From contig OZ244779.1 of assembly GCA_965219575.1 (NCBI GenBank), forward strand, positions 1,644,769 through 1,708,768: a DNA stretch of 64,000 bases. Reading direction: 5' to 3'. How positions within the stretch are numbered: position 1 is the first letter of the stretch; each line of letters starts with the position of its first letter. The notes beneath the pieces are model-generated. The model did no database searches. It saw only the letters and a program-made list of their open reading frames with translations, and had not been told where the DNA came from. Origin of the DNA: Candidatus Oxydemutatoraceae bacterium (GTDB lineage Bacteria > Pseudomonadota > Gammaproteobacteria > Poriferisulfidales > Oxydemutatoraceae). The translations under genes were made by a program, and so were the position numbers. This document shows, piece after piece, positions 1-42,983 of the stretch.

Positions 1-3000
1 TCACCCTATAAGTCTGCACATTCCCATTCTGTGCGGTCACATCTACGGTAAGCAATTTACGCTCACCGGGGTCGACCTCAACCCTAAAACTCGGTCCTAG
101 CGAGTTAAGTTCTCCGTCTTTGATCAACAATTCTGCATTTGCATCGTTGACCGTCGCAGTGAGCGTTGTACCGGCTATGTCGTTAGGCAACTCTATGGTG
201 TAGTCGGTGCCTTGGCTTGCCGAGTTCTCGTTGAATACGAATGCCGGTGCCAATAAACCCGGTGATACGCCGAGCGTTCTCAGTCTCGTATCTTGGTTTC
301 GCTCGCGGTCGATGGTCACCGTATAGGTTTTACTCGTCTGCCCGTTTTCGGCAAGTACTTTAAATGAGACTATCTTATCCTCGCCTTCGGCGTCAACGAA
401 GGAAATAGCGTCGCGTATATCGGCATCGGCACCGTCTATCGTAAAATCGATGATCGTCGCACCGGAATGTGCGGGCATCGCTCGCACTCTAATAATCGAT
501 GTCTTAATGCCGACTATCGGGTTAGGGATCGTATAGACATAGTTGGCACTCGTCGCTAGGTTGCCGAAGTCGGCGAGTGTATTCTCTCCCGATACTACCT
601 GCAGAGTCCTTAAGTTGGCATTATCGCTCGCCTCGCGGGTCGCACGCACCACATAGTTACTCGTCGTCGCACCCGGTGCTACGAGTGCTACGGTAATGTT
701 CTTGGGCTTATCCACATCGAGCGGAATTGTGGCACTTCCATTAGCGGCTTGTGACACCTCGTCTTCGGCATCGAAGATCGTATATGCTACGATACCGTTA
801 TCCCCGGAGAACAGTGTCGGACTCACAACCAGATTGTCACGCTCGTTTGCCACCGTCACCGTATAGTTTCGGGTAAAGGGATCAAAACGATAAGGATCAT
901 CGTCGCTGAGCCCGCCCAAACCTAGTGCCTGCAAAACCAGTGGACGGATGACGGTCACGCTATAGTGCTGCTCGGTATAACCGTCCTCGGTGCTATCGGC
1001 GCGTCTTACGACGAGGGTGATTCGGTTGGCACCTCGCTGCAACGGAATAGCTTCGGAAATAGGAACAGAAGCTGCATTTGCGCTTAAATCCACGGGATTA
1101 TCGTTCAAAATATAGTCGGTGTTGTCGACACCGATGCTGCGAATACTTACACCGGCGGCGATCGCCGCTGCCGACGCTACGGTTTCGGTCGCGGTGCTGA
1201 TCAGTTCGCCGCGATATTCGGTTCCGGAGTCGCTCACCGGATCAAGTGCCACATCGCTCATTCGAAGCATAAATCCTAAGGCACCTTGGGTCACCGATGC
1301 AGCTCGGGATATCACCACGGTATAAGTTGTGGCTGTTCGATCTTGTGCGGTTACCGAGATGGTAATGTCTTTGCTCATTCCGCGATTAACCGGAACCGTT
1401 AGACTTGCCGATTGCATTGCGCGACCCGAGTTTCTCATTCCGTCTCGGATCACCAGTGTTGCATTGGCATTGGCGGCGGTTGCACTCAGTTCAACATCTT
1501 CGGTGTCGTTAGGCAACTCTACGCTATATTTTCTAACCTCTTGCGTTGCCGTTGAAGCATCAAAGTCGAATTGCGGTATTAACTCACTCGACGATACCGC
1601 CAGCGTACTCAGCCGGGTATCTCGGCTCGCTGCCCGCATGATAGTCACCGTATAGGTTTTCCGGACGCTACGCTGTTGTGCGGTCACCACAATTCGGGCG
1701 CGCTTAGTCTCACCTTCGGCTAGAGAAATGCTCTCATTTATCCTATTGACACCCATAACTCTTGGGGAGGTGTCTTCGCCTATCGTAAGACTGATCGTCG
1801 CATCGGGATGTGCGGCTTGCGCTCGCAGACTAACACTCGTTATCTTATCACCGACGATCGGGTTGGGAATCGTATAGACATGGTTGACACTCGTCGCTAG
1901 GTTGTCGAAATCGGCAAGTGTATTTCTTCCCGACATGATACGCAAAGCACTCAAGTCGGCATTGCGACTGATTTCTCGGGTCGCACGCACCGTGTAGCTA
2001 TTCGTCACTCCGTTCTCTGCTTCAACAATGACGGTAATGACTTTCGGAACTCCGGCGACAAGCGCAATCGAAGCCGCACCTAATTCCAAATCCTGCGCCG
2101 CTATCTCGGTGTTTCCGTCGCGGATCGTATATATGACATTATTATTTCGATCCGTGTCGGACAATACAGGTCTCACAACGAGGCGTTTATTCTCGTTTGC
2201 AATCGTGACCGTATAGTTAGGCGTAGAGGAACCGAAACGATAAGGATCATCGGTCCTAAGTCCGGTCAAACGCAAATCCTCCAGAATCACCGGACGAATA
2301 TCGGTTACGGTATAGCGTTGTGTTGTCTCACCGGCTTCTGCGGTCACGACGATTTCGATTGTATTTTCTCCGTAAGCTCGGGTAATATCGTATGCGTTAG
2401 TACCGAGGATGGGAACAAGCAGTCTACCGCCGAGATTATCTAAGGTGCGTTGCCTAACTTCAATCCGTTGCCCTCGTTGGATATTCACACCCAGCACAAA
2501 GTTGTTTCCGCTAATACCTTTTATCTCGTAATTGGCTACATTGCCGGCAAAGTTCGGATTTAAGCGACCGGGTGCCGGCACGATACCATTCAATTCGGTG
2601 TCGGTGTTTCTGAGGGTTATCAGTACGACATAGTCTTGAGTCGTCCGTCGATCTTGTGCAGTCACGACGATAGTAATCGTCGTCGTCTCACCTTCGGTCA
2701 CTGCGATCAACGAACTCTGTCCGCTCTCGGTTATGACTTCGCCGCGATCGCTTCCCGGTGCAAAGACTTCCACTTTATTTACATAGCGCTGTGCGGTCGG
2801 TTTTACTCTAACACCGGTCACGATATCGGTGAACGATGCCCGATATTCACCGCCATCGCTTAAGCTATCAAAAATCACCAACGGCTCAACCGCAACCGAC
2901 GATTGCGGCAATAGTTCCAATGCCGACAAACGGGCATCGGTGCTGGGTGCCCGATCTACCGTCAAGGTGTAATCTGCACTGTCGTCTTCGCTACGCGATT

Positions 3001-34200: not shown

Positions 34201-37200
34201 AATTGTTTATCGGTTGCCAGCCGTCGTCGCCGGCAGCACCGAAATCGTCCACCGTCCAATCGCTGTTGACCCGCCTCGTGCGATAGCTTGAGGCATCCTC
34301 AAAATCCAGATTTCTGGTTAATCTGTAGGTGCCGGTCGGGTTGTTGCGTAGCGCATCCAGGTCTTCCAGAGTGTTGATCTCTATCGGTGTTCGCGGCACA
34401 CGGTAGCTCAAACGGAAGTTATATCGGCGTTTGCGTGCCGAAGGATCCGACGGGGTGAGCTCGACGACGATGTGGTTTTCACCGTCCTCCAAAATAATTT
34501 CCTCGCTCAACTCGCCGGCACCGAACTCGGAAACCAGTGCCGTGTTATCCTCGCCACGCAAGGCGCGGAACCGCGCACCGGCATCCTGCGACCCGACAAT
34601 CAATCGGATCGTGTTGTCGGCACCGACACCGACGACATGCGTTCGGTAATCACTCAACCTGCCGTTAAAGTTTAGGCGCGGTGAAAATCTACCGGGGGAT
34701 ACGCTTAATTCGTTCAGATCATAGCTCGGTTTCGGTGCTATCAGACTGCCGCAGACCGGCAAGCCGTCGCCACCGGCATCGCTACAAGTGCGCCGACCGC
34801 TGCTATCGGGGTTTCGGGCATATTTGAGACGCGGATATTGACGGTTGGTGCCGAAATCCCAGTTGTCGGTACTCCAGCCGGTATAGCGGGTAGGGCTCGC
34901 TGCATCCGGTGCAGTCGGCGATTGCATCTGTTGTGTGTCAAGACCGCTACCTCTTTCGCTATTGCTTAGACCGCTGGTTTCTGTATTCCAATAGCTGTTT
35001 TGAACGCGACCATCGGTGCCGGCAAACCTGTTTCCCAAGAAACCGCCTATATTCGGTCCGCTTGCCGATACACTGCCTATGGAGTAACTATCGGCAATTA
35101 ATCCGTTTGTTTCGTTTTGCCATAGATTGCCGATGAAACCACCCACTTGGTTTATGCCGGTAACCGAACCGCTTGCATAGCTATTCCTAATGACGGTATT
35201 GTTTAATTTTTCACCTACAAAACCTCCGATAGCCCTAGTACCGTCGGTAGTGCTCATCACATTACCGGTTGCATAGCTATTTCTGATTTCACCCCTTCTT
35301 TGCACACCGACGAAACCACCGGAAAAACCGACTGCCGAAACGCTGCCGGTCGCATAACTGTTGATAATCAAATTGGGAGTATCGTCGGCAAGACCGACCA
35401 AACCCCCGACTGCCGTGTTTCCGGTGACATCGACGCCGGCGTAGCTGTTGATAATCCAGCCCGAACGAAGATGCGCACCGACCAAACCGCCGATGTTATT
35501 GCGTCCGTTGATCTCGCCGGTTGCATAACTGCCGATGATGGTACCTCGGTTTGCACCTGCCAGCGCACCGCTATAATTATTGCTACCGACATCTATTCTG
35601 ACATCGGTCAAACCGAGGTTGCGCACCGTGCCGGTGATACTACCGAACAGACTTTGATCGTTGTCATTTCTATTGATTTGCAAATTGGATATTACGAAGC
35701 CGTTGCCGTCGAAGGTGCCGGAGAATCGGTTAGCATCGGTGCCTATGGGTTGCCAGCCGAAGTTGGTTTGACCGTCAAAGTTCTCCGGCCTCGTCCACCA
35801 TAAAGGTCTGTTTGTTGCCGCATCTTCATAACTGGCATTATTGCCGAAGTCCAGATCTCTGAGCAGGCAATAGCTACCGTCTCGGCGGTTGCGTATTTTG
35901 TTAAGGTCTTCCAAAGTGTTGATCGGCGTGAAATTACTCAACTCCGAACACTCTCTCGTTTCAACGACATCGGCGACGACGACACGGTTGAGAATGATCG
36001 ACTGGCGCACCGTTTGACTACTCTTGACTTCTATTACGAGGTGGCGCATCGGTTCGCCGGCAGTCAGAGTCAATGCCCTGCTAGGTTCGCCGCTGGCTAG
36101 ACCGGATTGCAATAGGCTCCCGTTTGCATCGTAGATATCAATGACGGCATTGTCCTCGAAGGCGGTGGCAATCAGGCGAATCTCGGAAACCGACGCAGAT
36201 ACCCGGATGTTGCCCGAATAACTGCCACCGGTGAACGGCGGCGATAGGGTGCCGTTGACTGCCGTTAAAAACCGCAAGCCGCGACGCAATTCGGGCGCGA
36301 TCAGCGTGCCACATTCGGGGGTGTCCGGCGTGCCGCACGCCGGTTGACCGGCGAGGTCGGGGTTCGGTGCATGTTTGAGGACCGGGTATTGAGCATCGCT
36401 ACCGAAATCCCAATCGTCGGGCTCCCAACCGAAATATACCCCGTCGGTGTTACTATACTGTGCAATGCCGGTCCGTAGCTCTGCCGTTGTTTTGCCGTTG
36501 CCGCCGGCCGAGGTTGACACACCGCCGGCGATTGTATCCCAGTAACTCGCGTCGACGGTAGAAGAAACTGCGAGCCGACCGATTAATCCCCCGAGTGGAA
36601 AAGTGCTGGGAAGACTAGGTCTCACCACCCTAACCGTTGCATAACTGTTGCGTACGCTACTGTCCTGTCGCTGAAAACCGACCAACCCACCGACAGAGGC
36701 ACCGATGTTAGCAGGATTATTGAGGGAACCTTGCGCATAACTATTGACGACTTGGCTCGTATTCTCCAAACTCCCTACCAATGTTCCTGCATGATTATCA
36801 CTATTGTTTGTGGTGACATCGGCAACCGCATAACTATTGATAATCCTAGAGGCTTGTACATGACCGACCAACCCGGCAACATGAAGCATGCCGCTGGTAA
36901 TTCTACCGATGGCATAGCTGTTGATAATCAGACCGTTCTGCGACATTCGCCCGACCAAAATAGCGGAAGCACTGAGTCCCCTAGAGACATTCGAGGAACG
37001 GACTATATCCATGAACGCACCGCTGTTGATAATCTCTCCGCCTAAGTTCTCGGCAACCAAACCGCCTATTAGATTACTTGCCGTGCCGGCGGCGGTTATT
37101 TCACCCTGCACATAGCAATTAACGACCGCGCCGCTATTGATTACCGCTAGACCGGAGAGTCTTTGACTAATCGACGGCGATCCCGCTATCTCTAGACCTG

Positions 37201-40200
37201 CTATGCGGAGGTTGCGTATCACACCCGAATTGGCGGAGAATAAACCTTTGTCACCGGTTGCCGCACTATTCATTCGTAAATTGTAGAGCGTGTTGCGGTT
37301 GCCTTCGAAAGTGCCGGTGAACGGGGTGCTACGATCTCCTATCGCTCTCCAGCTGTCGTTGTCTTCAAAATCCAAGTCTCTCATCAGTTCGTAGCCGAAG
37401 CAACCGCTGTCGGGACACCCGCCGCTTAGCTCGTTTGCCGTCGCGCGCGCTCTATAACCGCTACCGGATAGCTCGTAGCGGATTGCGTTCAACGCCTCCA
37501 AATCGTAAATCTCTATCAGACCGTCGCGGTCTTTATCTACGATTGCAGTCGGTGTCTGCGCTGTTAGAGTGTTATCGTAGCCTTGCCGGTCTATATAGTA
37601 TATTTGCAGGCGGTAGCGAGCAGTGTCTACTTCGTGCGTGCCGACATCGAATGTCGCATCGGTTGCTCCGTCTATGCCGATCCAGCTATCGGCTTCACCG
37701 GTTTCGCTGAATTGCCATTGATATAGCCGACCTTGTTCGGCAATCGAGCCGACACCGTCGGCATCCGCGGCGATGACTTCCTCAAAACCCGGCGAGTGCA
37801 ATAACGAAGTGCCGTTCACGAAGGCTAAGGGAGCCAAAACCGGACTGCCGTTATCCATTTTGGCAACGACGAGCTGCTCGGAGCCAATATCGCGGTTGCC
37901 GAAGCGACCGTCGCTTATCTCCACACGCAGTGTTGCAATACGCCCGGTTTCGGTTATTGATGCCACGAAATCGCCGGCTATTGTTAGATCGAAGTCGGGT
38001 TGGTTTATGGTGATGCCGGTGTCTAGACCGTCCATCAACAGCGGCATCTGCGGTGCGGTTTGTCTCCACATGTAAGTTAAGGGAACGATCTCATCGGTGT
38101 TGCTCGCTACATTGAAGCGCACCGTTTGACCTTCTCTCACCTGCCTGTTGCTCGGATCTACCGTCACGCTCGCAGCGAAGCTACGGAGGATTTTCATACT
38201 ATAATTTCGGGCAACGATTAGCTCGGTCGACGCAGGTGTCGCATCGAGGCTGATCGATAGATCGTTATCGCTACCGGTGACCGTAATTGGGTTGGCTTCG
38301 TCGCCGACTTTTAAGACCGTGAATGTAGCATCGTTATCGCTTGCGGCAACATCCAAGCTAATCGCAGTCGGGTTGTCGCCTACCACCACATAGTAGTTGT
38401 TAATCTCGGGGGTGAACTCGGGAACCAATGTGAAGCCACCGTTGACCGCTAGGGTGACTATGCGAGCGACTTGTTGCCTTAGGGCGGTGCCGTCGACATC
38501 GCGCAGTATCGGGTATTCGGTGGTGGAACCGAAATTCCAGTCGTTGCGACTCCACAAATAAAAAGCATCGGATACCTGCTCGCCGGGCGCAACCGCTGCC
38601 TTGAGATCGGCAATGCCGCGACCACCGTCGCTCGTCGTGATACCGGCCTCGATGGTATCCCAATAGCTACGCACTACGCGACCCGAATTGATACCGACCA
38701 AGCCACCGACATCATCGCCGCTGCCGACCACCCGCCCGGCAGCATAAGCGGTGCGAACTTCGCCGCTGTTCTCGCCGATCAAACCGCCGACGCGATCGGC
38801 ACCGACGACCGAACTCAACGCATAGCACAGCTCCACCGTGCTGCCGAATTTCCTGCCGACCAAACCGCCGACTCTATCGGCACCGGAAACCTGCGGATTG
38901 ACCGCATAGCTACTGCGTATCATTCCATTGTCGGCTCTACCGACCAAACCACCGACATTGTTCACATCGTTGTCTATGCCGGGGTCGTCGCTGTTGTCTC
39001 CTACGACCGAACCCGTCGCATAGCTGAACATAATACCGCCGCCGAACGAATAACCGACTAAACCGCCGACACCGATGCCGGTGCCTCGTATATCGCCGCT
39101 CGCATAGCTGTTTTCAATTCGGTTGTTCTCGGCGGTGCCGACCAAACCACCGACATTCGAAACACCTACTACAACGACAGTCGCATAACTGTTGTTGATC
39201 GTGCCTTCGTTATTCATCCCGATTAAGCCACCGACATCGGTGTTACCGACGACCATGCCGCTCGTGAAACTACCGACGACGACGCTCCCGGTTTCGTCTA
39301 CAGTACCGATCAAACCGCCGACATTGTCGCTACCGTCAATGCCGATTTCGGTTGCCGAACAGTCGGCTAGGCGCTTGCCCGCATAAAAACCGACCAAACC
39401 GCCGACATGCGTATTGCCGGAAACCTCGATGTCGTTTGTCGTGCTGTCGGTAATCGTGTTGTCGCTATAGCCGACCAAACCGCCGACATGCGTATTGCCG
39501 GAAACCTCCATATCGTTTGTCGTGCTGTCGGTAATCGTATTGTCGCTGTAGCCGACCAAACCGCCGATGTAGTTGACCCCGCCAACCGCACCGCTTGCCG
39601 AATTATCGGTCAAGCGGAAGGTCTGCAGACTATCGGCTGCGATAACTTCTTCGGACGACGGACAACGACGGCTGCCGGTGATGCTCAAACACGCATAGCC
39701 GATCAAACCGCCGGCATAATCGCCGGCTACCAACACATCGGCACTCACATTGTTGCCGACGATAGAACCGATGGTGTAGCCGACCAACCCCCCGACATAA
39801 CCGTTGCCGTGTATGTTGCCTCTGATATCGTTGCCACCGAGGATGCGCCCGGAATTGAAACCGACCAAACCGCCGACCCGCTCACCACCCAGCACATCGG
39901 TCGATGCAAAATTATCCGATACGATGCCGAAGTTGTCGCCGATCAAACCACCGACGGTATTGCCGTCGCGTATCACCGTCGCAATCTGCTCCGCCGCCTC
40001 GCAGTTGCTCGTCGCGCGGTTATCGCGACAACGGCTTTCAAAAATACCGCCGGCAACTTGTTCCAGCAGTATATTGTTGTTGACCACGGTGCCTCTGTTG
40101 ACGGCAACCAACCCTCCGACGGTTCCGACACTGCCGATTACACGACCACGCACGACATTAACATTACTCACGATGCCTTCGTTGACGGCAACCAAAGCAC

Positions 40201-41080
40201 CGACCTGCGACCGGCCGGTGATATTCGAACGTAACAATGTTAACGCATTGATTTGTGCTGTCGGCGCAGTGTGTGCGAAAAACCCGACACCGTCTACCGG
40301 ACGGTTGATATAGAGGTTCGAAATCGTGAAACCTCTCGCCTCGAAGTAGCCGGAAAACGGACTCGCTCTCGTGCCGATCGGCTGCCAACCCAAACCTTCG
40401 TTCCACTCCCGATTGATGCGACCGGCAAGATAGCTTCCGGCATCGCCGAAGTTTAAGTTCCTCGTTAACTCGTAGCCCCTGCAGACACCGTCGTTGCCTT
40501 CGGCGTCTTCGGCACAACCTCGGTTGAACAACGGCGCAGTGGGGCTTGCCCTATAGCCACTTCCGTCCGGAACATATCGGATCGCATTCAAGTCCTCTAA
40601 ATCGCAAATTTCTATCAAGCCATCGTCGTCCACATCGATATCGACGGCATAGCCACAGTTGCGATCTACGATAACGACCGAGATCGCAGCCGTCTCGCCG
40701 AAGCTGTAATTTGCTCCGTCTCTCGGCTCGGCGATGCTTAAATCTAAACGGCTGGAGACCGTCCTGTCGCCGGGGTCGGTATTTCTGGTGGGGATGCTCA
40801 GCGCAAGTCGGGTGCTACCGGCGGGAACGACGACCGTCCTCATACCCTCGAGTTCGTCGGGGACGAGATCGTTGTTGCCCTCTTCTTCTACCCTCAGAGT
40901 AACCGAAATGTTTCTATTAGTCACCGCATCGAGCGTTATCGCATAGTTTATGGTGTCGCCTTTGTAGACCGCAGACGGCGCACTAAGAGATACGGATTGC
41001 GCAAATACTTCACCAGCCAGTAGTACGAACGATACAACGATAATCCAAAAATAGCTACTTGGCGGTTTCATATAAAGCAT
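1..41080 (-). CDS. Giant secreted repetitive surface protein / putative adhesin (gene B): GLUG beta-helix modules plus cadherin-like beta-sandwich stalk; >=13,690 aa, 3' end outside the window
   Basis: The reverse complement from 41080/41071 reads (MLY)MKPPSSYFWIIVVSFVLLAGEVFAQSVSLSAPSAVYKGDTINYAITLD... The window end reads ...VTAQNGNVQTYRV in the same frame (codon starts = 1 mod 3 at both ends). The ORF track lists no ORF from this start, which is expected if there is no in-frame stop before the edge. 1-19292 is colinear with the 6902-aa ORF. I did not translate every codon by hand. Confidence 0.93.
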   Translation of the reverse strand, partial: MLYMKPPSSYFWIIVVSFVLLAGEVFAQSVSLSAPSAVYKGDTINYAITLDAVTNRNISVTLRVEEEGNNDLVPDELEGMRTVVVPAGSTRLALSIPTRNTDPGDRTVSSRLDLSIAEPRDGANYSFGETAAISVVIVDRNCGYAVDIDVDDDGLIEICDLEDLNAIRYVPDGSGYRASPTAPLFNRGCAEDAEGNDGVCRGYELTRNLNFGDAGSYLAGRINREWNEGLGWQPIGTRASPFSGYFEARGFTISNLYINRPVDGVGFFAHTAPTAQINALTLLRSNITGRSQVGALVAVNEGIVSNVNVVRGRVIGSVGTVGGLVAVNRGTVVNNNILLEQVAGGIFESRCRDNRATSNCEAAEQIATVIRDGNTVGGLIGDNFGIVSDNFASTDVLGGERVGGLVGFNSGRILGGNDIRGNIHGNGYVGGLVGYTIGSIVGNNVSADVLVAGDYAGGLIGYACLSITGSRRCPSSEEVIAADSLQTFRLTDNSASGAVGGVNYIGGLVGYSDNTITDSTTNDMEVSGNTHVGGLVGYSDNTITDSTTNDIEVSGNTHVGGLVGFYAGKRLADCSATEIGIDGSDNVGGLIGTVDETGSVVVGSFTSGMVVGNTDVGGLIGMNNEGTINNSYATVVVVGVSNVGGLVGTAENNRIENSYASGDIRGTGIGVGGLVGYSFGGGIMFSYATGSVVGDNSDDPGIDNDVNNVGGLVGRADNGMIRSSYAVNPQVSGADRVGGLVGRKFGSTVELCYALSSVVGADRVGGLIGENSGEVRTAYAAGRVVGSGDDVGGLVGINSGRVVRSYWDTIEAGITTSDGGRGIADLKAAVAPGEQVSDAFYLWSRNDWNFGSTTEYPILRDVDGTALRQQVARIVTLAVNGGFTLVPEFTPEINNYYVVVGDNPTAISLDVAASDNDATFTVLKVGDEANPITVTGSDNDLSISLDATPASTELIVARNYSMKILRSFAASVTVDPSNRQVREGQTVRFNVASNTDEIVPLTYMWRQTAPQMPLLMDGLDTGITINQPDFDLTIAGDFVASITETGRIATLRVEISDGRFGNRDIGSEQLVVAKMDNGSPVLAPLAFVNGTSLLHSPGFEEVIAADADGVGSIAEQGRLYQWQFSETGEADSWIGIDGATDATFDVGTHEVDTARYRLQIYYIDRQGYDNTLTAQTPTAIVDKDRDGLIEIYDLEALNAIRYELSGSGYRARATANELSGGCPDSGCFGYELMRDLDFEDNDSWRAIGDRSTPFTGTFEGNRNTLYNLRMNSAATGDKGLFSANSGVIRNLRIAGLEIAGSPSISQRLSGLAVINSGAVVNCYVQGEITAAGTASNLIGGLVAENLGGEIINSGAFMDIVRSSNVSRGLSASAILVGRMSQNGLIINSYAIGRITSGMLHVAGLVGHVQASRIINSYAVADVTTNNSDNHAGTLVGSLENTSQVVNSYAQGSLNNPANIGASVGGLVGFQRQDSSVRNSYATVRVVRPSLPSTFPLGGLIGRLAVSSTVDASYWDTIAGGVSTSAGGNGKTTAELRTGIAQYSNTDGVYFGWEPDDWDFGSDAQYPVLKHAPNPDLAGQPACGTPDTPECGTLIAPELRRGLRFLTAVNGTLSPPFTGGSYSGNIRVSASVSEIRLIATAFEDNAVIDIYDANGSLLQSGLASGEPSRALTLTAGEPMRHLVIEVKSSQTVRQSIILNRVVVADVVETRECSELSNFTPINTLEDLNKIRNRRDGSYCLLRDLDFGNNASYEDAATNRPLWWTRPENFDGQTNFGWQPIGTDANRFSGTFDGNGFVISNLQINRNDNDQSLFGSITGTVRNLGLTDVRIDVGSNNYSGALAGANRGTIIGSYATGEINGRNNIGGLVGAHLRSGWIINSYAGVDVTGNTAVGGLVGLADDTPNLIINSYATGSVSAVGFSGGFVGVQRRGEIRNSYATGNVMSTTDGTRAIGGFVGEKLNNTVIRNSYASGSVTGINQVGGFIGNLWQNETNGLIADSYSIGSVSASGPNIGGFLGNRFAGTDGRVQNSYWNTETSGLSNSERGSGLDTQQMQSPTAPDAASPTRYTGWSTDNWDFGTNRQYPRLKYARNPDSSGRRTCSDAGGDGLPVCGSLIAPKPSYDLNELSVSPGRFSPRLNFNGRLSDYRTHVVGVGADNTIRLIVGSQDAGARFRALRGEDNTALVSEFGAGELSEEIILEDGENHIVVELTPSDPSARKRRYNFRLSYRVPRTPIEINTLEDLDALRNNPTGTYRLTRNLDFEDASSYRTRRVNSDWTVDDFGAAGDDGWQPINNFTGTFDGNGFAISNLQIKVGDADTVAVGLFGTIGVRGTVKNLILNDADVRASNSAAVQVAALVGHNRGLVLNSGVIASIVEGVGNTRGGGNHNYIGGLVGRNGLGSNDIAYIGNSFVVDSEIRVNPAVANATHHIGGLVGRNFYAEIYNSFVQATTVAGYCHVGGLIGNQFGPSSTIKNSYADVTLASSTESCRIGARGKLLGLVNGGVIENSYATGSSPGVTNLLGAQISSRASGFPPLIFNDSYSDSGASAGDARGRTTMQLQMPTAAVGLYENWSDEIWDFGTESEYPRLKYTAGPFGNVCDVAGAPDCGTLISPPRSYAVSDPGPVDLVIEIDSLEDLYRIRNNPNARYLLTRSLDFLDNESYKDLVNKAAWTVDDFNDTLDQGWQPIDNFSGSLDGNGFVISNLQINRSNINQGLFGSITGIVRNLGLTDVNINIEGTNIGALVGANRGTVIGSYAIGEVAGTDHVGGLVGAHLASGWIINSYAAVDVTGNTSVGGLVGIAEGTTPNLVINSYATGSVSAEGLSGGFIGLFSSGEIINSYATGRVRVTDVTTNEHVGGFVGEKSDNAVIRNSYATGAIAAGDASDVGGFAGLSSGANTISDSYAIGNVSAIGSAIGGLIGSGSGTARNSYWDTQTSGRATSAAGSGLTTEEMQSPTAPSATSPLRYTDWNPDDWDFGTDRQYPTLKYRANPSSDGPQSCNADGSDGLPICGSLISPQLRYGLLEDILVVDGELEPAFHASNHGSYRGRVLSSENPIRLQPITFDLAAEIKIFRFVAGVKTQIGNTLAGGNRSAPILLDTDAPRYLIVEINPSADGEPTVEYPLYLRYRSRNAVIEIDSLEDLDNIRNRRNARYLLTRNLDFLDDDSYDDLANKTTWTVDDFDDRADTGWQSIGTDDARFGGEFDGNGFVISNLQINRSGSADHSLFGSITGTVRNLGLTAVNIEGTQFTGALVGSNRGTVIGSYAVGKVTGTDNVGGLVGAHLQSSRIINSYAAVDVTGNTGVGGLVGVAGLNREAPNLIINSHATGNVSANGFCGGFIGVQRIGEIRNSYATGHVSGRSVRSVGAFVGDKVGNTVIRNSYATGSVIGTSSVGGFIGNLWQNAANGLIADSYSIGSVSGSGSNIGGFLGSRFDNTDGRVQNSYWNIQTSGRSASQRGRGLNTEQMQSPIAPDATSPPRYTGWSSDDWDFGNAEQYPTLKYAQNPDIAGARTCNAAGVGGLPVCGSLIAPQLRFGLLQDLSIVDGELLPRFAVGQSNYSGEVLSLRDTIRLRPVAFDSAAEIKIYLYDGTARRQLGDALDSGDLSAPFRLKQDTIQYVVIEINPSVAGQPTVEYPLYLRYRPGTAIDSLEDLDAVRNRLHGNYVLTRNLDFADDASYDSTVFKALWTVDDYRDATDLGWTPIGDADTPFTGTFDGNGYTIANLQINNDDNAMHKGLFGVIGSVGTVRNLGLVDAEIEDYNGNRHADDYPGVGTLAGMNDGTVIGSYAHGTVRGSRGLGGLVGRNADDGEILNSHAVCTVQSSASDSVAGGLVGEDRNIIGNSYAASIVRGQDSVGGLVGRSAFTPTPATGYNSYADSFVSGNSNVGGLFGSSYSNYRNIYATGWVRGRSEVGGLAGTNNRGLYQNSYGIGRVDVGGSLIGRLSNSNASLINSYANSDLSSRPLVNNISSGATIRNSASATTAELRAGSAQLGNVSDVYYNWNNANWDFGNAEQYPVLKYAANTTGRSRACDGDGLPNCGAVIPRRALSALRVSERRSRLVPPLDTRYRSYIGVVERDTPSASLVAVAADPNAQITFIYFDDAYNETGRSEPMTAVAGGVGGIVSREITLSQSTATYVAIEVITPGGDGRSGGVDRYNLSLRYRPALLGDDGNPAIVIDTLEDLDNIRNNPSANYILTGDLDFLDDASYEDATNKAAWTVDDFDDPADTGWQPIGTDAARFRGEFNGNGFVISNLQINRNVNDQSLFGSIEGSIRDLGLIGVSIEGRAYTGALASANRGTIIGSYATGKVTGTDIVGGLVGGHLRSGWIINSYAAVDVTGNVNVGGLAGASGFFDGIPNLIINSYATGSVSADGFCGGFVGVHRDGEIRNSYATGNVMGRTLRSVGGFVGDKVGNTVIRNSYATGSVIGQESVGGFIGTLWQNVASGLVADSYSIGSVPDSGVNIGGFLGNRFNNTDGRVQNSYWDIQASGTSFNDERGLGFNTEQMQLPITPGTTPTDVYYNWSSADWDFGTAEQYPILKYASTDTITVCDGNGLPNCGDLISPQIRNGLRNLELASGTLIPAFSAGSSNYRGEATLDTIALIPTAMHDGAVINIYLGSVDGTPDQSIVSGMTGMPIVLDRDEGVNRIVLEITSGTTRVQYPLYINYIGDRVLADRDGNGFVELYYLDHLHAVGTSTSTLAGNYELMRDLDFNDADSYLSGTVNGDWTVDDFDDDDALGWESIGNITDRYSGRFDGNGYTIANLQINRDNAIYRGLFGATGPGAVVRHLDLVGVKIEGSDIIGALVGGNQGTIIGSYASGDISATNNVVGGLVGTHDRGSIANSDAAVNVVGRQGVGGLVGTGRADIVNSHASGNVSGEWNIGGLVGSHANSEIRNSYATGRIDVIDAATNQNIGGLVGRKFTTTVIRNSYATGAIAAGDASAVGGLVGNASGANTIRNSYATGRVSAGGSAIGGLIGTGSGTAGNSYWDGQTSGLNTSASGSSRTTTQLQAPTNQTADAGIYASWSPADWDFGTTEQYPILKYASIAAVTVCDGSGLPNCGDLIAPQIRNGLKSLELASGELVPAFTASNSRYLGTVGMDTIALIPTAMQDDAVINIYLGAVDGTPDQSVVSGMTGMPIVLDQDDINRIVLEIVATPPLRYSLFISFQEDDTPSDRDGNGFAEIDNLDKLRFIATRPAGNYELTRHLNFNDPDSYAGNRINREWTVEDFNDASDTGWLPIGERNTTFTGQFNGNGYTISGLQINRTTDRQGLFGTVGKDGVIRDLGLLDVKVGRIDTSGAIYSHVGALIGYNAGVAIGNYATGEIAGYANNIGGLVGTNTDSGLIANSYVIGTVNGYFNDIGGLVGDSLGTVVNSYSDVAVSTNQSNLGGLVGNCNGCNIQNSFAIGAIVNTGSLSLPTGGLVGSAQHTFNIANNYAQSNIRQALNPSGYANGGFVGVLGLNSTATLTANYSIGRTNGSFYDRLSGFNRPSVSAPNYWNSDTAEGQSRLGDSRVGVSGRSTRELQSAIAKGTNSTQIYHNWSEDNWHFGNDMQYPILKYAPNPVADGMRTCDGNGLPDCGDVIAPQIRNGLEDLTLADGDELYPPFGDTHRSLNGNYSGRVVATDPGRSNPNPIRIVATAKEDNAMINIYLGTVKGKSRPDQTVISGTTSSRITLAEGVNRIVLEIKGNSTVRYPLYIRYNESTEIHDLEGVDRIRNNPSGHYKLMRNLDFDDPTSYRLGRINREWTVDDFNDDDDFGWQPIGNNTNRFSGTFDGNGYTISNLQINRDSGNNQGLFGVIGNSGVVRDLGLLSVKIDTGGTTGAVAGILEGEIIGSYAIGEITATGNNVGGLVGLTNPSNNAEILNSYAAIHIEALPGSRANNYGGLVGFASSGMIINSRAYGSIVGNIRYAGGLVGRSLRGTGAFSTEIYNSYAGVNIRADDNVGGLIGDILVNGLVVNGYATGSVHADVNNGGGLVGSISGTQSIEIGTRNSYTLSGVTGSGTLGGLVAANNRVGTNTDASYWNSETGGLNTSAGGTSRTTVQLQMPTGPTGIYMNWRADDWDFGDTDEYPILKYTAEPDIFGNPACRLDRNAVSRLPVCGDLIAPQIRNGLQDLRLASGILNPSFAEGSADYFGEVYRNPIRIVATARDDNTKINIHLNFVKRDPFQTIIGGGTSNPIFLDDGINHIILEIEGKPPAYYPLYIRHQNDPMLADRNRNGFTEIYYLDHFHAIAASTSTLAGRYELMRDLDFNDPNSYLSGEINNDWVVDFTDATDTGWLPIGDTTTPFTGTFDGNGYAIARLQINRSSQNNQGLFGVIDSSGVVRNLGLPNLMVEAGSQLGGIAGTVRGKIVNSYATGAVSGVGDVGGIAGVAAGTGVIVNSRSGIRLSATGINAGGMLGRCDGCTILNSFAVGSVTGIGSADNIGGFVGRAGGTSNIGNNYAWVDVSGGPFSTNLRSNANGGFFGALFIENNNLSINANYSIGPSSLAYAGFISDLVRINISRANYYNSDTVTQDLPAPARVFQGRTMRQLRAPTEAGRNSGQIYYRWSPADWDFGTAMQYPLLKYTAATDVLDSPACRSAEDTPSRLPLCDTLIASKTRYGLSALTARYAQLTVPFDDALSDIDGAYYTTVLNDTPRVQLVATTREAGATYSVYIGGVRTLENTEIAGGNPSGEIALTAGGTTEVVIVVHGTETVRYTVYLDYRPETSIDADNDGLVDLHYLEDVAMVHSNFQREIGYRIGGELNTLGCPNGVCRGYELMRDLDFNDPNSYRDPARNGVMRRWTGQGWDSPNLSNAVFKGNGYEISNLKVTGNTDRNDAFFHLAFGTDIDGLGLVNVDISADNAANPHSVELAGLVGVFVNQRDNRGTIRNSYVIGDIRGAGSANISGLTYRAVGYSVSNSYFIGTLRLLGNNRRDNVIVSANGLVTASAGFSSDSLGNSRAIGRIETAIENEFIDTAMLGVDSTRSLNIGNSYASMLMTRAGVAQGNLSNGLARITNSYFDRDIARVDVPASRARSGAELRATTMTGIFANWDADDWDFGGAGQSPVIKYNSDECQRARHDNPLCGKILPYQGSLMARFELLGNAGLSRPFDFATFNDYEIVVAADQQSLRFVAEAFAPNADIVVYKTTTAAEVLRVKSGVATPPIALDTGGDTLLDVVVEEGEDRKSYRYRFNISRLNERIDFAAIDGDNDGLIDVATPEQLDAMRHSLDGNFYRAGSTGNSTRIYCRVGCRGYELTADIDLAGINWQPIGRNDARFNAHFKGNGYAISNLTISNPTLIDVAMFAYLGANARLEDIHLKDASIRSRRATSAIAALAVRNYGTIFNSRIENATILLRNELGGSTLVYQNFGRIINSGAVGGTIDNRSVAAGLVHTNNGAILGSFATIPIRSRGSENIAAGLLLTNNGNGNVDNSYAQRIISDSTGAGLIDTNGGAVNNSYATGGPLVRAASGSPEVENSYWDRDTAAPGATGAAGAARTTIALQLADREENSTDNVYTGWDTERWHFGNADQYPTVLYHGAGLCTQPTAAQLQSCDTLVSETLSGADRAVICRDRLLRDRTDPPYCGTLVPYQNRRGLIALELPAGVRLVPEFSPEVESYNLITNGAITVFHTTPTAYYRADTVTLIAGDSEQMIADNTRSAEIDLNRTDTDALRLAVRSATDATTRSYTINFRSTDYQDNIDIQLSALDGSRLSPNFIRDRSDYRLIVYSDTERVRLNTTTSDPLPGAVVDIVIAADNGVQPITLQDSGIAEVVLNDGATEITVMVRGGQRYRFEYRIVVERLPFASYRGILTVDADNNIVVDDDRDLTLDADGDGLIEIAFLEQLDTIRYGLDGRGFSYQLGATTIEIDGGCPDSGCFGYELVRDLDFNSVDSYVDAQRTMPLWTGGKGWQPIGDADAPFTAQFIADGHTISGLMIRRHNTDDVGLFGAISAATIRGVNVSAAEVIGNNDVGILVGEDRNNSEIINSRATGTVRADNNGGGLIGVYRGTIVNSDSSVSVEVDASGGGLIGRLLRGAIGKSRASGTVSARSASGGGLVGAVENATISNSYATAMIDASEGGGLVGSLGTGVRIDNSYAIGANRSARSSGLVFNAANVPVAVNDSYWDINTSGVVDGRDGSSQTTVELQSTTTAIYTNWNAEIWDLGNNMQYPRLKYTTATDALGRAPTCRVASDTSSRLPVCGELLRGQYIGLTDLVFSSEVLELIPSFNPQIYNYSLVLKADETGFQLTPTYVGAAYGLSVDGGVAEIVRSGSASSRIPVAASGSTGIDLGNGDLVYTFTASRHPYLRIGDVDVDDDGLIEIHNRTELDAVRYQPDGSGYRSSAADRRITVGCAPTTGCIGYELAASIELSAADWEPIGTLKTLDCDNPENGCFAGIFEGNRSSGYTISGLRIATPNSDNVGLFAHLHRDAEIRNLVLSGVSVRGRDGVGGLAGNSDGRVDHVSVRGEVGGESEVGGVIGYNTGHLSDVLADPIEVVGYNSENGYSELIGGVVGRNLGGSIVASGAIGEVTGRAFVGGLVGENDGLVDRSFAEVAVVGSGSDDSESYNVGGLVGYNTDKVYNGYAIGSVSGESNVGGLVGTNSIGSDGDGRIVNSYASGAVSGIGAVGGLVGRNDVGAAVLTSYALGEVSGNNSVGGLAGLNIGMVSDTYASGDVSAQGRVGGLVGVNGNVGTRSIVNSYAIGRVSDVRESGGLVGDNLGGVSNSYWNIETAGVADNGSGIGQTTVALLTPTTATGIYANWDTNLWDFGTSEHYPQLRYGRGDDGDNPACGGGGQPTCGSIRNYGLSDLQVLGSVRLSPQFATSRPRYRIDAYIGVTDSLRLIPHAASDDAVITIAYGGNEFGVADGASVSIVLDPGFDDAIIVSVGSAGTTIEYILEIDYSSFDDDRILADADGDGLIEITTVDDLYAIRHSLDGSTYIYALPDDGLLPIVDGCPTTPTAGCFGYELTRDLDFRDAASYRSGVVNTEWSDNWDPIGDADTPFAAVFDGSGYQIRNLSLRGTRTKDALGLFHTLGRNAEVKALRLSNVGIYDVIGRDFNRRRAEKQGGLAGENRGRIHDVGVKEINALVGSGYRQDLLKQSRFGGLVGVNSGGEISHSFAQVYIYSFSPRTGTFGDIVGGLVGRNEGGAKIKNSYATGAISGHCRLGGLVGEHISANRDSAENISTIENSYAQVDMNKILNVRCINEVFNVAGFVQGFGGLVGFMEQADIVDSYAAARQSGGVLGLIGRVRGTASATNSYWDNILNNKQSASTGVGETTAFGGQTTAVLQGTTPTMGIYANWSSDDWDFGTDAQYPTLKATDGSIAMQVLDSSLVRNVEVANVAIARINGITGGFRYSRNSNRYRLYVDATRLPLPITFTTTPPVAGLETMLYCDDALCPFVGSGDTLILDNSNTQEITLVASAGNRVSRYYFDIVRDNLRLDNIAAIDIAEGDMFTVGGDYAGSSDLSWSQISGTPVNIADADSLNLVLAPQVDLLPADVDHGDFEFELSLSITPNNRVRQVYLSRKIAVRINKVNNGRVTGNPVLSVNTNRRITVTENLNDIDGTVSNLSRQFQRRFPGDIWRNVNLSAGDTVDAGYQYRFIGLYSDGQGYTSEPIVSNIVTVGSSVAMDNADIDGDSIINADDIDDDGDGLIEIRHLEDLDAVRHQLDGSGSRASADADLITRGCPITGCIGYELTRNLNFTVAGSYRNADANMSRWTVSENEFVSTDDGWQPIGGVFDAIFNGNGYSIARLSISRSSAGTRANVGLFSEIGASGKVENLVLDFPAIKGLAGFKNVGAITGLLRRGGVIRNSDVFGTVTRNSSVRVIRTDLGSAGGLVGVNAGYIVNSRARINVSVQDSDGTIANNGNVTVGGLVGRNRSGGKIHNSYYSAGEVSGTCIAGGLVGSQLSAAERADGIGEIRNSYVHSNSDVEIPAAVSCATPYLGGLVGRHIDGRSIVANSYANGRAYVPTLFGANASVSDLGASQTQSFASCPGNITATYNGNPVNVTVAGLLNRDTPSRAPTNSYWRREPYRCAVTVSGTTYITHAVSMPDVNNRRSNNTLTNPSVPNTPQTCLSGEDGESEASRNRTRSCITYRGWNTDHWDFGTDMQYPLLRYTEGADRDDPACDFDDSTSLPMCGALLRGQPRTTVVSPRSAPPVSGEPPQLVITYARNDATAVALDVQSTITVNEGDTLILDATRSRAADNAVLDYRWRQTRGPELLPTSQNIERTLSVTVRDDLLAAEADSGQAVIKLEVVKRNNPDAFASRDIIIDVVKTNRDGDMAALRWVDGPLGVANANYIFASEINDADGGPFTDISYQWELDGSPTGLDRAYYRVGNIFASYRLTTTYTDNQGYSNTIVSVINGRLAFDDRIVDHDRDGLIDIFFIEQLDLIRNQLDGTLLEDLSNDEFPFRSSRGCPGDVCRGYELVRDLDFDDTLSYRTVNGPANYNNWDPIGTVVNIQNQLGNCSDASSNCFTAIFEGNGYTISNLRINQPVSFAGTSQAGQVNLGLFAAASGNAEIRGVRLVDVNIAGSNNVGALVGSFSGRSITDSHVLSGTVSTYYDGGCLIGRANGTNIQISDSSANCTLTGTNVLGGLVSFSNANIGNSRTSGAINLNINISGQRDIIANGGLVGVLESGGRIENGASSATVVRKGGSSITVTQGTGIGGLVGIGRSNTMITNSYATGDVRGEGSRAGGLVGNLGGEISNSYAAGDVDGSTFIGGLVGHAANATIGNSYAIGDVNGDNTVGGLIGDVNDTAIDNSHATGRISADDIVGGLIGRLIDDDVINRPDSKVIANNYTFAAVTARGGDSNFNQVGGFLGYFEVGRSTIVRDSYAAGSVVGAARKGGFIGIYRASGQIIDNYSIARVSGNPTNDRGFIRLDFGPNLTGNYWDIERSGQSAGSRFGSLRGFNSEVLKSSRSSNAHPYRNWSTERWDFGTTEQYPVLKYDDGTCAGGTPSVNCGAVLPRQRLGLQDLQIGQIGALAQPELSAMPRVATFKDDFDRAAVDELTVSVRDRSAEIRIVADAYNPAGVIKINDAPPSVGSANYFASSDFTTATRVRIVVSEPYEIGGKENLDVEYRIAFNTVPEASAIAVRAAMDERGEPLSTSVPIREGHFITLSSELSDADGDDLRYRWTIDDTQVRLLDRTMLAGRVSGGSGRATLSFYLRDDFIAADQTAETVNISLAVSDTVGETVTQAHSFSVAKYDNGTIDGITTPTRIGLTYTAAMLDKDKLAEDPDGAGDVGDIAYQWQRRAGGNWTDINAANGIGYTVVGEVADYYRVAVSYIDGQGYSRTVASPPQQASTGLVLRETPVADTEGFIYVELAADNLSPDFNFPFEERNYSVPTEVERLDVTAIGGAISVNGVPLADEIATTLDLEYGDNEITVVSQGEDDTSTRTYTVFRAYDVAIRGWRVEWQGEDGTEIRDLGADLRMRPDIPNAISTITVIASVNELVDIVIASDGNTVGEITTSTQAGLLVAQATIGGLALGENGIAFTVTAPGGSFEDPEVAMYSVTVWHRYNTRLRNLRLVGTDFTTKFRPEVPRYFATIANERGSETIEFERKEGTTVLVNDVEVDGNRVDSLPLNIGDNTIALRVQAPRETDTVYTLVVVREYSLDLQDLVLTYAQATTVTLVPTFASTRHIYTAVVPTETSQVRVTFATDLQVVSELSADIAPITTDTRVLADRIEKIVSVPLNYDDNTMVIGTSALGEQQATTLTITRLRSTDAELRDLQVLNDDDINVLSVFNPTTRSYTVEVANDQRTVSLRVTPQDTKITAILWNGIPLSLSGLETGSVTRDRPESEPLFVLGENEIELKIIAHDKITSQTYTLVVNRLSSKNARLRSILYTLSSSSGERDPQSLGVSDFVPDKLEYRLPGVESAIDCILVRALQDDQYGEATVEISKVAGAESDSPIECPDTSLRLGAGQNTIEVKVTASDRKTINRYRLNISRALSSDIRLSRAPLIIIPSVAITPAIAVPGSDTEYTAVIDRNVTRFSVSATAAHPAATVTISIGDGADAIGGRTATKTDIPIGVPMGLNDIAVAQREITITVTAQNGSTENYKLTARIILGSNANLASLRVSPVGSLIPQGDPPMYATTLGESVGDATVTAVAADQFATVTISENNTRLVSAKRQGMADITLADTGDRRDLLIRVIAENGAMVKDHTLTVARAQSTNDCLDAIAILDADDSRLLVNQDIECNNRSPSFDVANSVAQVLIRPTAENSQAVIAVHAPGDADGERVQSGADSTMPISIDEGGSAQVRIEVTSQNGATSRAYIVTINRAESSDADLRNLRLLDANDANLLPDFDPTSETQVYRFNVPNATTGTRVVAEAHPRAIIEVVIDGIAETATGTINRAFDLTVPEREKRIRITVSSQDDSMTRDYTIAVTRARADRSNANLASIALSLDDDTRTSLFTLTSPDEDASTTYSARITGITGLEVQNIIQIVVSPRAEDGEATVSIDGGAAESMPDKSVALNAALDKPEPAIPIKVIAEDRTTSAAYSLVITRESSADASLASVIVGRTTLPVGRDGTYTTSLGEHTANTTVTVTTTHSQATVAITLEGETNSTRNMLSRPVTIADTGTSRDLRIVVTAQDGRTMESYTLTVRRDPSRDASLRDITVVGASVIDNGDRTYTATVGEATTSSIVTVTAGNEFATVVITDASNTEIGSAEGAAQASITLDDPGDSKELRIRITAQSRSEDDSADYTLTVDRAPSTDARLSALELLPQSSVAVEPLVIFDSLSDGGEYRASFTDIVTGVRVKPTAQRYVNKVEVFAPGSDRGEVITESGQSSLIAVTEGETTTITIVVTAQDRRTTQDYVVLITLRNTDTELNGIVPAPGRLNPNFAGNVANYEIKGISGNNFVLGVNIQRGQRIEVRQRTLDNLGGRLLVPILGTNAYDITRAYGENTIEIVVTAEAGETTQRYTVTDIRPVILEDLRLTGLRTDDPYRFGSSTPNYTVTIANENKRLVVRPVLSDTDRNNNVIYTIRDGNTEIAAQDLELGAASIALVAGVPKVITVIVEAENGVTNSYTVRATREISRNADLSALRIMSGRNTLADFDNLATSVNHVYTIPNPIVGDKITSVSLRAQAAHPDATISLTIGEDTSPRVMGVNRINESISLAEGETKRARIVVTAQQRSVRKTYTVTIMRAASRDTRLSTLAVSSSELIPQFDFDASTATQEVRKYSVELPNDTEDVELSATAANANATLVIRDGMRNSGRAMQSASLTVPVNRGMSKDITISVTAQDRTATTYTVVISRAASVTQGALGFMLRMSDVALDPVSDSGTEYRGELISTATETVASAAAIAAGVSIRSIGVDNTDYILNDNPVDLSANAASVPISEAIPLQRGANRITLVVRRADSTEDGYTEQHYSVTVIRPLVLQALGLGGLSDDDPYRFDPFTRNYTVTVANERDNLVVSPTLFSGDNGIVAYTIFDAEDEVSQAANGSATIPLDVDKPKNITVALVAPGATTSNYVVRATREASDNANLRTLQVVSGENTLADFGNLATSANYVYTIPNPIVGIKTSIIRVRAMPAHSGATIIDFTIDGADADIRDAISFVDAEGEDKIVSFKVLAENGQTSKTYTVTIDRERNQDTRLRTLGVSPGLLAPAFVFNENSASQGTDYTIELPNDIAGTTLTATVNDANAELLIKDGELNSLGPSFRVEVDPGERKLLTVDVTAQNGNVQTYRV
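8200..40650 (-). repeat. About 19 tandem GLUG/GGLVG beta-helix modules of gene B (typical period ~1.5 kb)
   Basis: W[DHN][FL]G-x4-[YS]P cap motif (mostly ccgaaatccca on +) counted near 8294, 10800, 13200, 14823, 16635, 18552, 19956, 21414, 22890, 24441, 25989, 27498, 29064, 30618, 32157, 33348, 34851, 36402 and 38529. The modules examined carry Y.L.R.L[DN]F, W.PIG, F[DE]GNG[YF].I..L, GLF and multiple GGLVG/NSYATG repeats. Confidence 0.85.
39390..39568. repeat. 81-bp (27-aa) near-perfect tandem duplication of one GLUG coil
   Basis: ccgaccaaaccgccgacatgcgtattgccggaaacctc...gtcgtgctgtcggtaatcgt at 39390 and 39471. ccgaccaaaccgccga recurs at 39552. Confidence 0.92.
41000..41071 (-). other. Predicted Sec/SPase I signal peptide of gene B
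   Basis: MKPPSSYFWIIVVSFVLLAGEVFA|QSV: basic N-region, hydrophobic core, V-x-A cleavage motif, no lipobox Cys. Confidence 0.8.
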
Positions 41081-41999: not shown

Positions 42000-42018
42000 T
42001 TTTAGCCTCTTCAGTTGA

Positions 42019-42047
42019 ATTATAAGAAAGAGCCTGCTTTATAGCAA
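42019..42047 (-). promoter_or_regulatory. Putative sigma70 promoter of the coiled-coil gene
   Basis: The minus strand reads TTGCTA-17 nt-TATAAT, ending 19 nt upstream of ATG 41999. Confidence 0.7.
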
Positions 42048-42957: not shown

Positions 42958-42983
42958 GGGCGGACATGTTAGTCCGCCCCTAC
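42958..42983 (-). repeat. GTAG-type REP hairpin
   Basis: Identical to 42683-42708. Confidence 0.85.

Follow-up and report, generated by a model that had tools for sequence, protein, structure and literature searches.

To our knowledge, bacterial proteins of more than 10,000 residues are rare and nearly all unstudied, and the LapA/SiiE type comprises giant repetitive adhesins of type I secretion systems (T1SS). Here we consider gene B, which covers positions 1..41080 (minus strand) of a 64,000-nucleotide (nt) stretch of Candidatus Oxydemutatoraceae bacterium (contig OZ244779.1; G000:C1:1644769-1708768), called the window below, and which encodes a giant surface protein whose short C-terminal tail probably docks onto a separately encoded secreted protein. 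The source genome (G000) is one contig of 2,369,097 bp with 47% GC and no N. Among the described systems with which this locus can be compared, the type II X-module-dockerin (XDoc) of the Clostridium thermocellum scaffoldin CipA/ScaA has as its partners the type II cohesins of anchor proteins on the cell surface (2b59, 3kcp, 4fl4, 5g5d, 5k39). According to a recent preprint, the last ~10 residues of the PilC/PilY1 adhesin complement a PilK-family minor pilin in trans, a strand that type II secretion systems supply in cis (10.64898/2026.02.14.705861). A 36,805-amino-acid (aa) protein of Chlorobium chlorochromatii and other proteins of more than 10,000 aa appear in another preprint, which also places the giant genes of Omnitrophota near type II secretion genes (10.1101/2023.11.21.568195).

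Gene B lies in a single stop-free frame of 13,738 codons that runs on the minus strand from window position 41215 to 2 and is open at its 3' end, as found by a scan for open reading frames (ORFs) in which open ends were allowed. From the ATG at 41080-41078 (an alternative ATG lies at 41071-41069), the window holds the first 13,693 of 16,023 codons. When the frame is followed into the adjacent contig sequence, as an earlier note on this DNA had suggested, it stays open to a TAG terminator at genome position 1637777, 6,991 nt to the left of the window, giving the gene the genome coordinates 1637777-1685848. Over these 48,069 nt frame 0 contains no stop and the remaining five frames contain 305-904, which excludes a chance origin of the frame. 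The earlier note had proposed a hidden, uninterrupted giant ORF over 1-41080, missed by the ORF list and beginning with an ATG plus signal peptide at 41071-41080, and on these points it was right: there is no in-frame stop on the minus strand, the two ATGs are followed by the predicted signal peptide MKPPSSYFWIIVVSFVLLAGEVFA and then QS, and no ORF was listed because the default list omits frames that run off the window. Its estimates of ~14,100 aa and 1.4-1.5 MDa, with an end ~1.4 kb left of the window, fell short of the actual 16,023 aa and 1.70 MDa, because it assumed collinearity with the neighbouring gene A, from which B differs by repeat-unit indels.

The product of gene B has a mass of 1.696 MDa, a pI of 4.6 and 98 cysteines, all but six of which fall into 46 close pairs spaced by 45 residues or fewer, in agreement with the many paired cysteines that the note had remarked on. 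The start codon and the predicted Sec-type signal peptide (residues 1-27/28) take up 40997..41080 on the minus strand, with a basic n-region, a hydrophobic core and a V-F-A motif, cleavage being predicted between VFA and Q; this prediction is backed by two paralogues, A and C, which begin with the same N-terminus. Gene B is a real, intact gene encoding a 1.70-MDa acidic, disulfide-rich secreted protein.

B is the middle member of a trio of co-directional tandem paralogues, flanked by C (13,356 aa, genome 1597332-1637402) and A (15,426 aa, 1688044-1734321); the 3'-terminal 6,908 codons of A occupy 43273..64000 of the window (minus strand; tail IRIRAKVFLEGPLQ at 43276-43317, stop at 43273-43275). 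The three genes are collinear, with 88-93% nucleotide identity (97% over the first 1.6 kb) and 79-85% amino-acid identity, and codon alignments give ratios of non-synonymous to synonymous substitution (dN/dS) of 0.41-0.44. Since B and C separated, neutral drift at the synonymous rate would be expected to have left ~116 stops per lineage; none is seen in any copy, and pseudogene status of B is rejected on this count. In a sequence search the first 700 residues of B match 12 of the 19 genomes of the family, and three congeners (assemblies of 1-3 contigs each) hold nine open frames of 10,138-18,986 aa with N-termini 44-64% identical to this region.

The product of gene B ends in a 14-residue tail, IRIRAKVFLEGPLQ, directly followed by the stop, both of which lie beyond the window. 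The source genome has 26 stop-to-stop frames with 1,500 codons or more, of which 24 are closed by the tail, [IV]R[IV]R.K[VI]FLEG[PL]LQ or the variant IHIRVFPEGLLR, and a degenerate DNA pattern for tail plus stop finds 43 sites there, against 0 for a reversed-pattern control. The 43 tailed frames range from 28 to 16,069 codons (24 have at least 1,000) and sum to 151,371 codons, or 19.2% of the genome, and all 43 tails end 3-4 residues past the EG of the motif. Tail codons vary synonymously, TAG or TAA serves as the stop and no conservation is found 3' of it, which indicates that selection acts on the tail peptide. Read-through of the tail stops, or a different genetic code, was rejected, given these TAG/TAA stops, the TGA used in G006 (see below) and the unconserved downstream DNA.

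Similar tails are found in related genomes: 13-23 in each of four congeners, 7-12 in three of the five genomes of genus g2, and 26 in G006 (genus g3) with a looser pattern, against 1 in the control. G005 has three matches, two of them plausible, and G010 has one, while the patterns used gave none in G003, G007, G008, G009, G012 and G013. Among 185,579 species genomes, DNA encoding KVFLEGP[LF]Q was found at 33 loci, 26 of them in three metagenome-assembled genomes titled 'uncultured candidatus Porisulfidus sp.', where all 26 have a stop immediately after the motif. Of the seven non-Porisulfidus loci, three are out-of-frame chance matches and four (two Bacteroidales, one Calditrichia, one Bacteroidetes) carry the motif in a non-terminal position, where it opens a longer conserved domain. 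Some tailed genes occur in arrays. In G006, 15 tail-plus-stop sites (VFLEGPLR) lie within 21 kb (G006:C3:498891-519394, minus strand), some only 156 nt apart and all but one with TGA, as an array of short genes, or fragments of genes, that carry the tail. Five ~5,800-aa paralogues stand in a row in the source genome (1232366-1331801, plus strand), interrupted by a tail-less 1,752-aa protein, and carry the variant tail ..IHIRVFPEGLL[RKL]; like five-fold arrays are present in the congeners G016-G018.

The counterpart of the tail in intact form was found in the complete genome of a sister genus (G014), where all six inspected giant ends carry a whole ~270-aa domain C-terminally, opening with ..VQARAYLQGAY.., ..AGVFLEGAY.. 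or similar. By sequence and by position the tail of gene B corresponds to strand 1 of this predicted end domain, and the giants of the source genome stop right after it. A profile of the domain that the motif opens at the four non-Porisulfidus loci finds in the source genome, through its positions 44-95 only (E 3.1e-10 and 1.2e-7), two ~290-aa proteins with predicted signal peptides: X1 (2246059-2246925) and X2 (2216893-2217657). X2 is encoded immediately upstream of a tailed protein of 4,598 aa. In a joint alignment, strand 1 of the intact domains falls on the signal peptides of X, at their hydrophobic core and cleavage site, and mature X begins 0-5 residues before M..IPL.DPYC, the motif that follows strand 1 in those domains. 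By this alignment, the rest of the end domain is encoded in the source genome as two free-standing secreted proteins, X1 and X2. No Pfam family matches X1 or the N-terminal 113 residues of the end domain. For Dockerin_1 (cut-off 22.9 bits), X2 scores above the cut-off (33.5 bits) and the G014 domain below it (16.4 bits).

The end domain occurs in 17 of the 53 genomes of the order, namely in 17 of the 19 in this family and in none of the 34 in other families. Of the 26 copies in G014, which has no free X, one is a partial match (model positions 6-46) in a 394-aa frame and the others lie in frames of 687 aa or more. In the other 16 matching family genomes X is found in frames of 265-439 aa, the exceptions being a 650-aa fused form in G008 and fragments of 103 and 117 aa in G007. 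In three congeners an ORF ending in KLFLEGPFR-stop abuts, and even overlaps, an X gene with its own signal peptide, an arrangement that looks like gene fission caught in place. Beyond these genomes, X has 41 relatives of similar length and 14 longer ones (E at most 1e-5), the longer, fused forms carrying varied passenger domains, among them cohesin. One distant relative from another organism (P0185, 393 aa) combines a cohesin (PF00963) and an intact X-type domain, starting LELKIFLEGPF, in one chain, and this hints that the X-type domain family works within cohesin-dockerin-type networks.

The model of an intact G014 domain has a mean predicted local distance difference test (pLDDT) of 76.7, with strand 1 above 90, and a predicted template modelling score (pTM) of 0.81; all ten of its Foldseek matches at E at most 0.001 are C. 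thermocellum type II XDoc entries. The G014 domain is thus predicted to be an Ig-like X-module, a beta-sandwich, that packs on a C-terminal dockerin with two Ca-binding loops. When mature X1 (residues 29-289) and the last 40 residues of B were modelled as a complex, the score was 0.86 (0.86, 0.86 and 0.87 in three runs), against 0.00 for the best of three controls. The score mark used is reached by 58 of 80 solved complexes and by 2 of 110 mismatched pairs, counts that hold roughly because our own alignments were used. The three runs have at least 87% of their contacts in common, with a partner pLDDT of at least 53. The modelled interface on B consists of precisely the last 16 residues, GAIRIRAKVFLEGPLQ, which run in register along KYVYDFSD and AFLLQNGRV of X1, touch IDWVLVEL, IHVMRS and the mature N-terminus, and take the place that strand 1 would take in cis. 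The complex model supports the putative binding of the tail to X.

The order of parts in the chain before the tail comes from self-comparison, Pfam, 18 aligned internal units and a profile derived from B itself. After the signal peptide come a small N-terminal sandwich, ~19 supermodules, a low-repeat stretch, 40 cadherin-like sandwiches and the tail. The supermodules, of ~500-735 aa each, span residues ~141-10,950 (8231..40660, minus strand) and consist, in this order, of a cadherin-like beta-sandwich, a putative calcium loop (DxDxDGLIEI/LEDLxAIR) with a short helix, and a GLUG right-handed beta-helix with coils of the type GGLVG...I.NSYA.G and a cap NSYWD...WDFG..QYP.LKY; most contain one or two close cysteine pairs. 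Pfam Glug (PF07581) matches B at 1.5e-61, and an AlphaFold2 model of one supermodule (pLDDT 82.8) gave six Foldseek matches at E at most 0.001, all six to IgA1-protease-type beta-helices (3n6z at 5.6e-7; 6xja, 6xjb and 7uvk at ~1e-6; 7uvl; 7jgj). Supermodule homologues are common, with 42,508 cluster representatives at E at most 0.001 and 5,288 at E at most 1e-30 among 1.84 billion. The stretch poor in internal repeats (residues ~10,950-11,312; 7145..8230, minus strand) has a Cadherin-like match at its end only, and in the self-comparison the segments numbered 10951 and 11251 match only themselves. It is followed by the array of 40 tandem cadherin-like sandwiches (residues 11,313-15,995), whose in-window part is 2..7144 (minus strand) and which continues outside the window; Pfam Cadherin-like (PF12733) matches B at 3.4e-102 and 2.4e-133, and the profile from B itself finds 56 such domains, the 40 of the array included. 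The product of gene B is accordingly predicted to be a modular, calcium-binding, disulfide-stapled, fibre-like surface protein, which from usual domain sizes would be several hundred nm long; the adhesin-like nature that the earlier note had ascribed to it agrees with these domain types.

We propose that B is a fibre exported by the Sec pathway on or around the cell of this sponge-associated gammaproteobacterium and held there by docking of its tail onto X, an explanation to which we give a probability of roughly 60%. After export the tail would insert into X as the missing strand (trans beta-strand complementation), and the dockerin of X would then plug the fibre onto a surface partner, so that one or two adaptors (X1 and X2) would serve 43 tagged cargo proteins. 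That the tail completes X by strand insertion and that the X dockerin holds the fibre at the surface is, on alignment and model, somewhat favoured; the chances are about even for the broader proposal of a natural split-domain sorting system, in which proteins made of an X-module minus strand 1 plus a dockerin capture any tailed cargo and dock it at the surface. Passage through the outer membrane might use a type II secretion-type system, one of which lies beside X1 and another beside other giants, and the fibre might mediate adhesion to the host sponge matrix or to other cells, both suggestions being weakly inferred. Around one fifth of the DNA of this 2.37-Mb symbiont lies in proteins with a common tail, including three tandem copies of 13-16 thousand residues, and an investment of this size suggests that the tailed giants are probably central to life inside the sponge. 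Should the proposal be true, the comparison of fused and split forms would offer a testable answer to what reads short tails on giant adhesins, namely an adaptor completed by the tail; it would be a new route by which Gram-negative bacteria sort or anchor their surface proteins, take cohesin-dockerin-type logic outside cellulosomes and provide a natural small peptide/protein docking pair that could serve as a laboratory tag.

Several observations weigh against this proposal. Tail and X are two halves of one domain, and the complex model may rebuild a recognised fold rather than report real binding. Five family genomes (G007, G008, G009, G012 and G013) have X-like genes and no detected tail, and the X-bearing G005 and G010 have only 1-3 tail matches; X may therefore act tail-free, or tails may have diverged beyond the patterns used. 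No cohesin (PF00963) was found in the source genome at E at most 0.1, in a search in which 3 of 14 control genomes were positive and which a divergent cohesin could escape. A folded fibre of 1.7 MDa would have to cross the outer membrane, and the suggestion of adhesion comes from domain types. The dN/dS of ~0.4 within the trio is relaxed. None of the 13 public runs (7 studies) that contain words of window positions 12001-22000 is an RNA run, and no protein evidence of B expression was found either. The contigs assembled from public reads are mostly shorter than 700 nt (the longest listed has 1,554 nt) and support local sequence, not long-range order.

The first alternative, suggested by the PilC/PilY1 preprint (10.64898/2026.02.14.705861), is that the tail is read by other machinery, either a PilK/GspK-type minor pseudopilin of a neighbouring type II secretion or type IV filament cluster, into which it would fit, or a sorting enzyme, X being an unrelated secreted dockerin protein. 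In its favour, a divergent secretin, a T2SSE ATPase, a T2SSF-like protein and two N-methyl pseudopilins are encoded between a giant of 15,560 aa and the row of five ~5,800-aa paralogues (L088:3887-12156, plus strand; genome ~1222786-1231055), and the five family genomes with X and no detected tail would also be easier to accommodate. This alternative nevertheless seems unlikely to us, since the tail corresponds both in sequence (KVFLEGP[LF]Q) and in position to strand 1 of the X-type domain, the very strand that X is missing, fused and split states are mutually exclusive per genome, and the modelled tail-X1 complex scores 0.86 against 0.00. No sorting-domain (CTERM) model of NCBIfam matches B.

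X1 itself lies in a secretion gene neighbourhood, in which gspC-gspD-gspA-gspB, a transposase, gspE, a rhodanese gene, X1, a GlyGly-CTERM-like protein and a rhomboid follow each other on one strand. The GlyGly-CTERM-like protein, directly downstream of X1, is a 1,484-aa secreted protein whose end consists of a Gly run, a hydrophobic helix and RRRR; with the rhomboid-family gene after it (L086:3572-8023 and L086:2779-3384, both minus; genome ~2240778-2246022), it likely forms a rhombosortase pair, judging from these sequence features. The transposase belongs to a PD-(D/E)XK_2 family of which two copies were noted, one inside the gsp cluster (L087:3383-4333, minus) and one near the downstream end of the trio (L009:3099-4043, plus). 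Around the trio are found trpA/B, alaS, guaA/B, xseA, hisG, an EPSP-synthase-family gene, mlaC, rne, cysS and secDF, and beside it no ABC transporter, membrane-fusion protein, TolC-type or other secretion gene, a single TolC-like gene lying far off at 2.33 Mb. A type IX secretion system was rejected, there being no model match, and a search of the source genome for ShlB/TpsB gave no match and is uninformative, as the control had no match anywhere.

A second alternative is that the tail is a functionless leftover of deleted C-terminal domains and that the giants are released or held otherwise. That there were ancestors with the whole domain is indeed shown by the fused form, which occurs in G014 and outside the order, and no dockerin partner was found. 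A leftover would be expected to decay, yet the tail always stops at the same residue and persists as a peptide despite synonymous changes on the 43 frames of the source genome, and it persists on 13-23 frames of every one of four congeners and on 26 frames in genus g3, so that we regard this explanation as improbable.

With a comparably small probability, the product of gene B may be no adhesin, serving instead as a structural part of the envelope or of a sheath, or being delivered to sponge cells as a factor that manipulates the host. Spending 19% of a genome on tailed proteins would suit such roles, and a further preprint reports giant virulence-factor-like proteins passed between the partners of a bacterial symbiosis (10.64898/2026.03.19.712371). 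Type III secretion genes are likewise present in the source genome, in the form of a YscD/PrgH-like inner-ring protein and a secretin with an SPI-1-type N0 domain (L087:16332-19479, minus; genome ~2263231-2266378). Against these roles, Pfam and NCBIfam found no enzymatic, toxin, effector, protease or RTX domain over the 16,023 residues, which contain only sandwiches, calcium loops and beta-helices, as is typical of surface fibres.

Some support for the frame itself comes from public data. Contigs from three runs of three further studies cover all 30 of 30 bins of window positions 10001-30000, many pieces with 0 differences, and the listed indels relative to gene B are multiples of 3 or +1/-1 pairs within 9 nt, apart from one lone -1. 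The short contigs contain many joints between repeats, whose sides of 20-40 nt mark them as repeat cross-matches, and the repeats inside gene B are at most 88% identical, so there is no near-identical repeat that would invite assembly collapse. That the 48-kb frame is partly an assembly artefact, with repeats collapsed, expanded or joined among paralogues, is the least probable alternative and very improbable: although the gene is rich in repeats, is flanked by two copies of ~90% identity and lies where short-read contigs shatter at many short-sided joints, no repeat, whether internal or between paralogues, is more than 93% identical over kilobases save for the 97% over the first 1.6 kb, the genome is a single 2.37-Mb contig without N, a chimera would hardly keep 16,023 codons open, and three other congener assemblies hold frames of 10,138-18,986 aa.

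The remainder of the window is taken up by the ~2-kb gap between genes A and B, which is filled with tandem repeat units. An intergenic array of ~275-nt units (42000..43272, no strand assigned) resembles REP (repetitive extragenic palindrome) or MITE (miniature inverted-repeat transposable element) sequences and is not a protein-coding part of B; it contains identical small ORFs at 42520-42672 and 42795-42947 and a recurring hairpin, CCGGTTCAATCGG, at 42550, 42825 and 43100. Between the array and gene B, a 184-aa ORF (41445..41999, minus strand) encodes about five coiled-coil-like repeats, ..IKADIKSIELRLNNV.., and a C-terminal transmembrane helix, with weak coiled-coil matches only in Pfam. 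A promoter-like site (10/12) lies just upstream of this ORF at 42047-42019; such sites are not in excess in its region (6, against 4.6 +/- 2.2 in shuffles), and promoter and terminator scans around the start of B and in the B-C gap did not rise above shuffles.

Compared with the described systems, the intact domain of G014 resembles XDoc in its predicted fold and in closing the C-terminus of a very large, modular extracellular protein. It differs in its host, a Gram-negative gammaproteobacterium and not a cellulolytic Firmicute, and shares only 12-14% sequence identity; moreover, no cohesin was detected in the source genome, where the X-module is split, with strand 1 on the cargo and the remainder on a separate secreted protein. 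As in the PilC/PilY1 preprint, the last ~10-15 residues of a large adhesin would here give in trans a strand that is supplied elsewhere in cis. In PilC/PilY1, however, the receiver is a minor pilin and the strand is the final one of the pilin sheet, while here an X-module beta-sandwich would receive the first strand of its domain; and one adhesin stands at each filament tip there, against 43 cargo frames with one tail here, known from sequence and model. The GLUG beta-helix agrees in sequence and fold with those of IgA1 proteases and the ZmpA-type M26 family (3n6z, 6xja, 6xjb, 7uvk), but B has ~19 beta-helix copies per chain instead of one and no catalytic domain: no M26 zinc-metalloprotease domain was found, Peptidase_M26_N gave weak matches only, and NCBIfam ZmpA matches B at 2.8e-10 with 38 bits against a cut-off of 3,000.

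In line with the earlier note, B is unlike the T1SS giants LapA, SiiE and BapA in that it has a Sec-type signal peptide and no RTX or T1SS family match (a LapA-domain match reaches 18.9 of the 27 bits required), and the trio has no T1SS genes on its flanks. As in other bacterial giants, it consists of a very long chain of immunoglobulin-like or beta-helical repeats. Tandem paralogues are shared with Giant1-5 of Apilactobacillus kunkeei, which are stated to make up 6% of 1.5 Mb (PMC12863079), against 19% of 2.37 Mb for the tailed frames here. Type II secretion genes lie near some of the giants here, as is reported of those in Omnitrophota, and B differs from the latter in having no transmembrane regions or SecA-like domains. 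A title and abstract search, with subscription journals outside its coverage, found no published giant proteins in Porisulfidus or sponge symbionts, only engineering work on X-module/dockerin systems in Gram-negatives, and nothing relevant on cadherin adhesins of sponge symbionts or GLUG beta-helix adhesins.

The tail also recalls the LPXTG/sortase, PEP-CTERM/exosortase and GlyGly-CTERM/rhombosortase systems, in which a short conserved C-terminal signal is likewise found on many unrelated secreted proteins of one genome. Unlike these tripartite sorting signals, none of the 43 tails has a transmembrane helix or basic cluster after the motif or an NCBIfam match, and the GlyGly-CTERM-like protein beside X1 looks quite different from the tail. 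Among the giant surface proteins compared, the short strand-1 tail is specific to the present case. As a giant repetitive surface protein the product of gene B is of a known sort; the proposed pairing of the strand-1 tail with a free X-module-dockerin is new.

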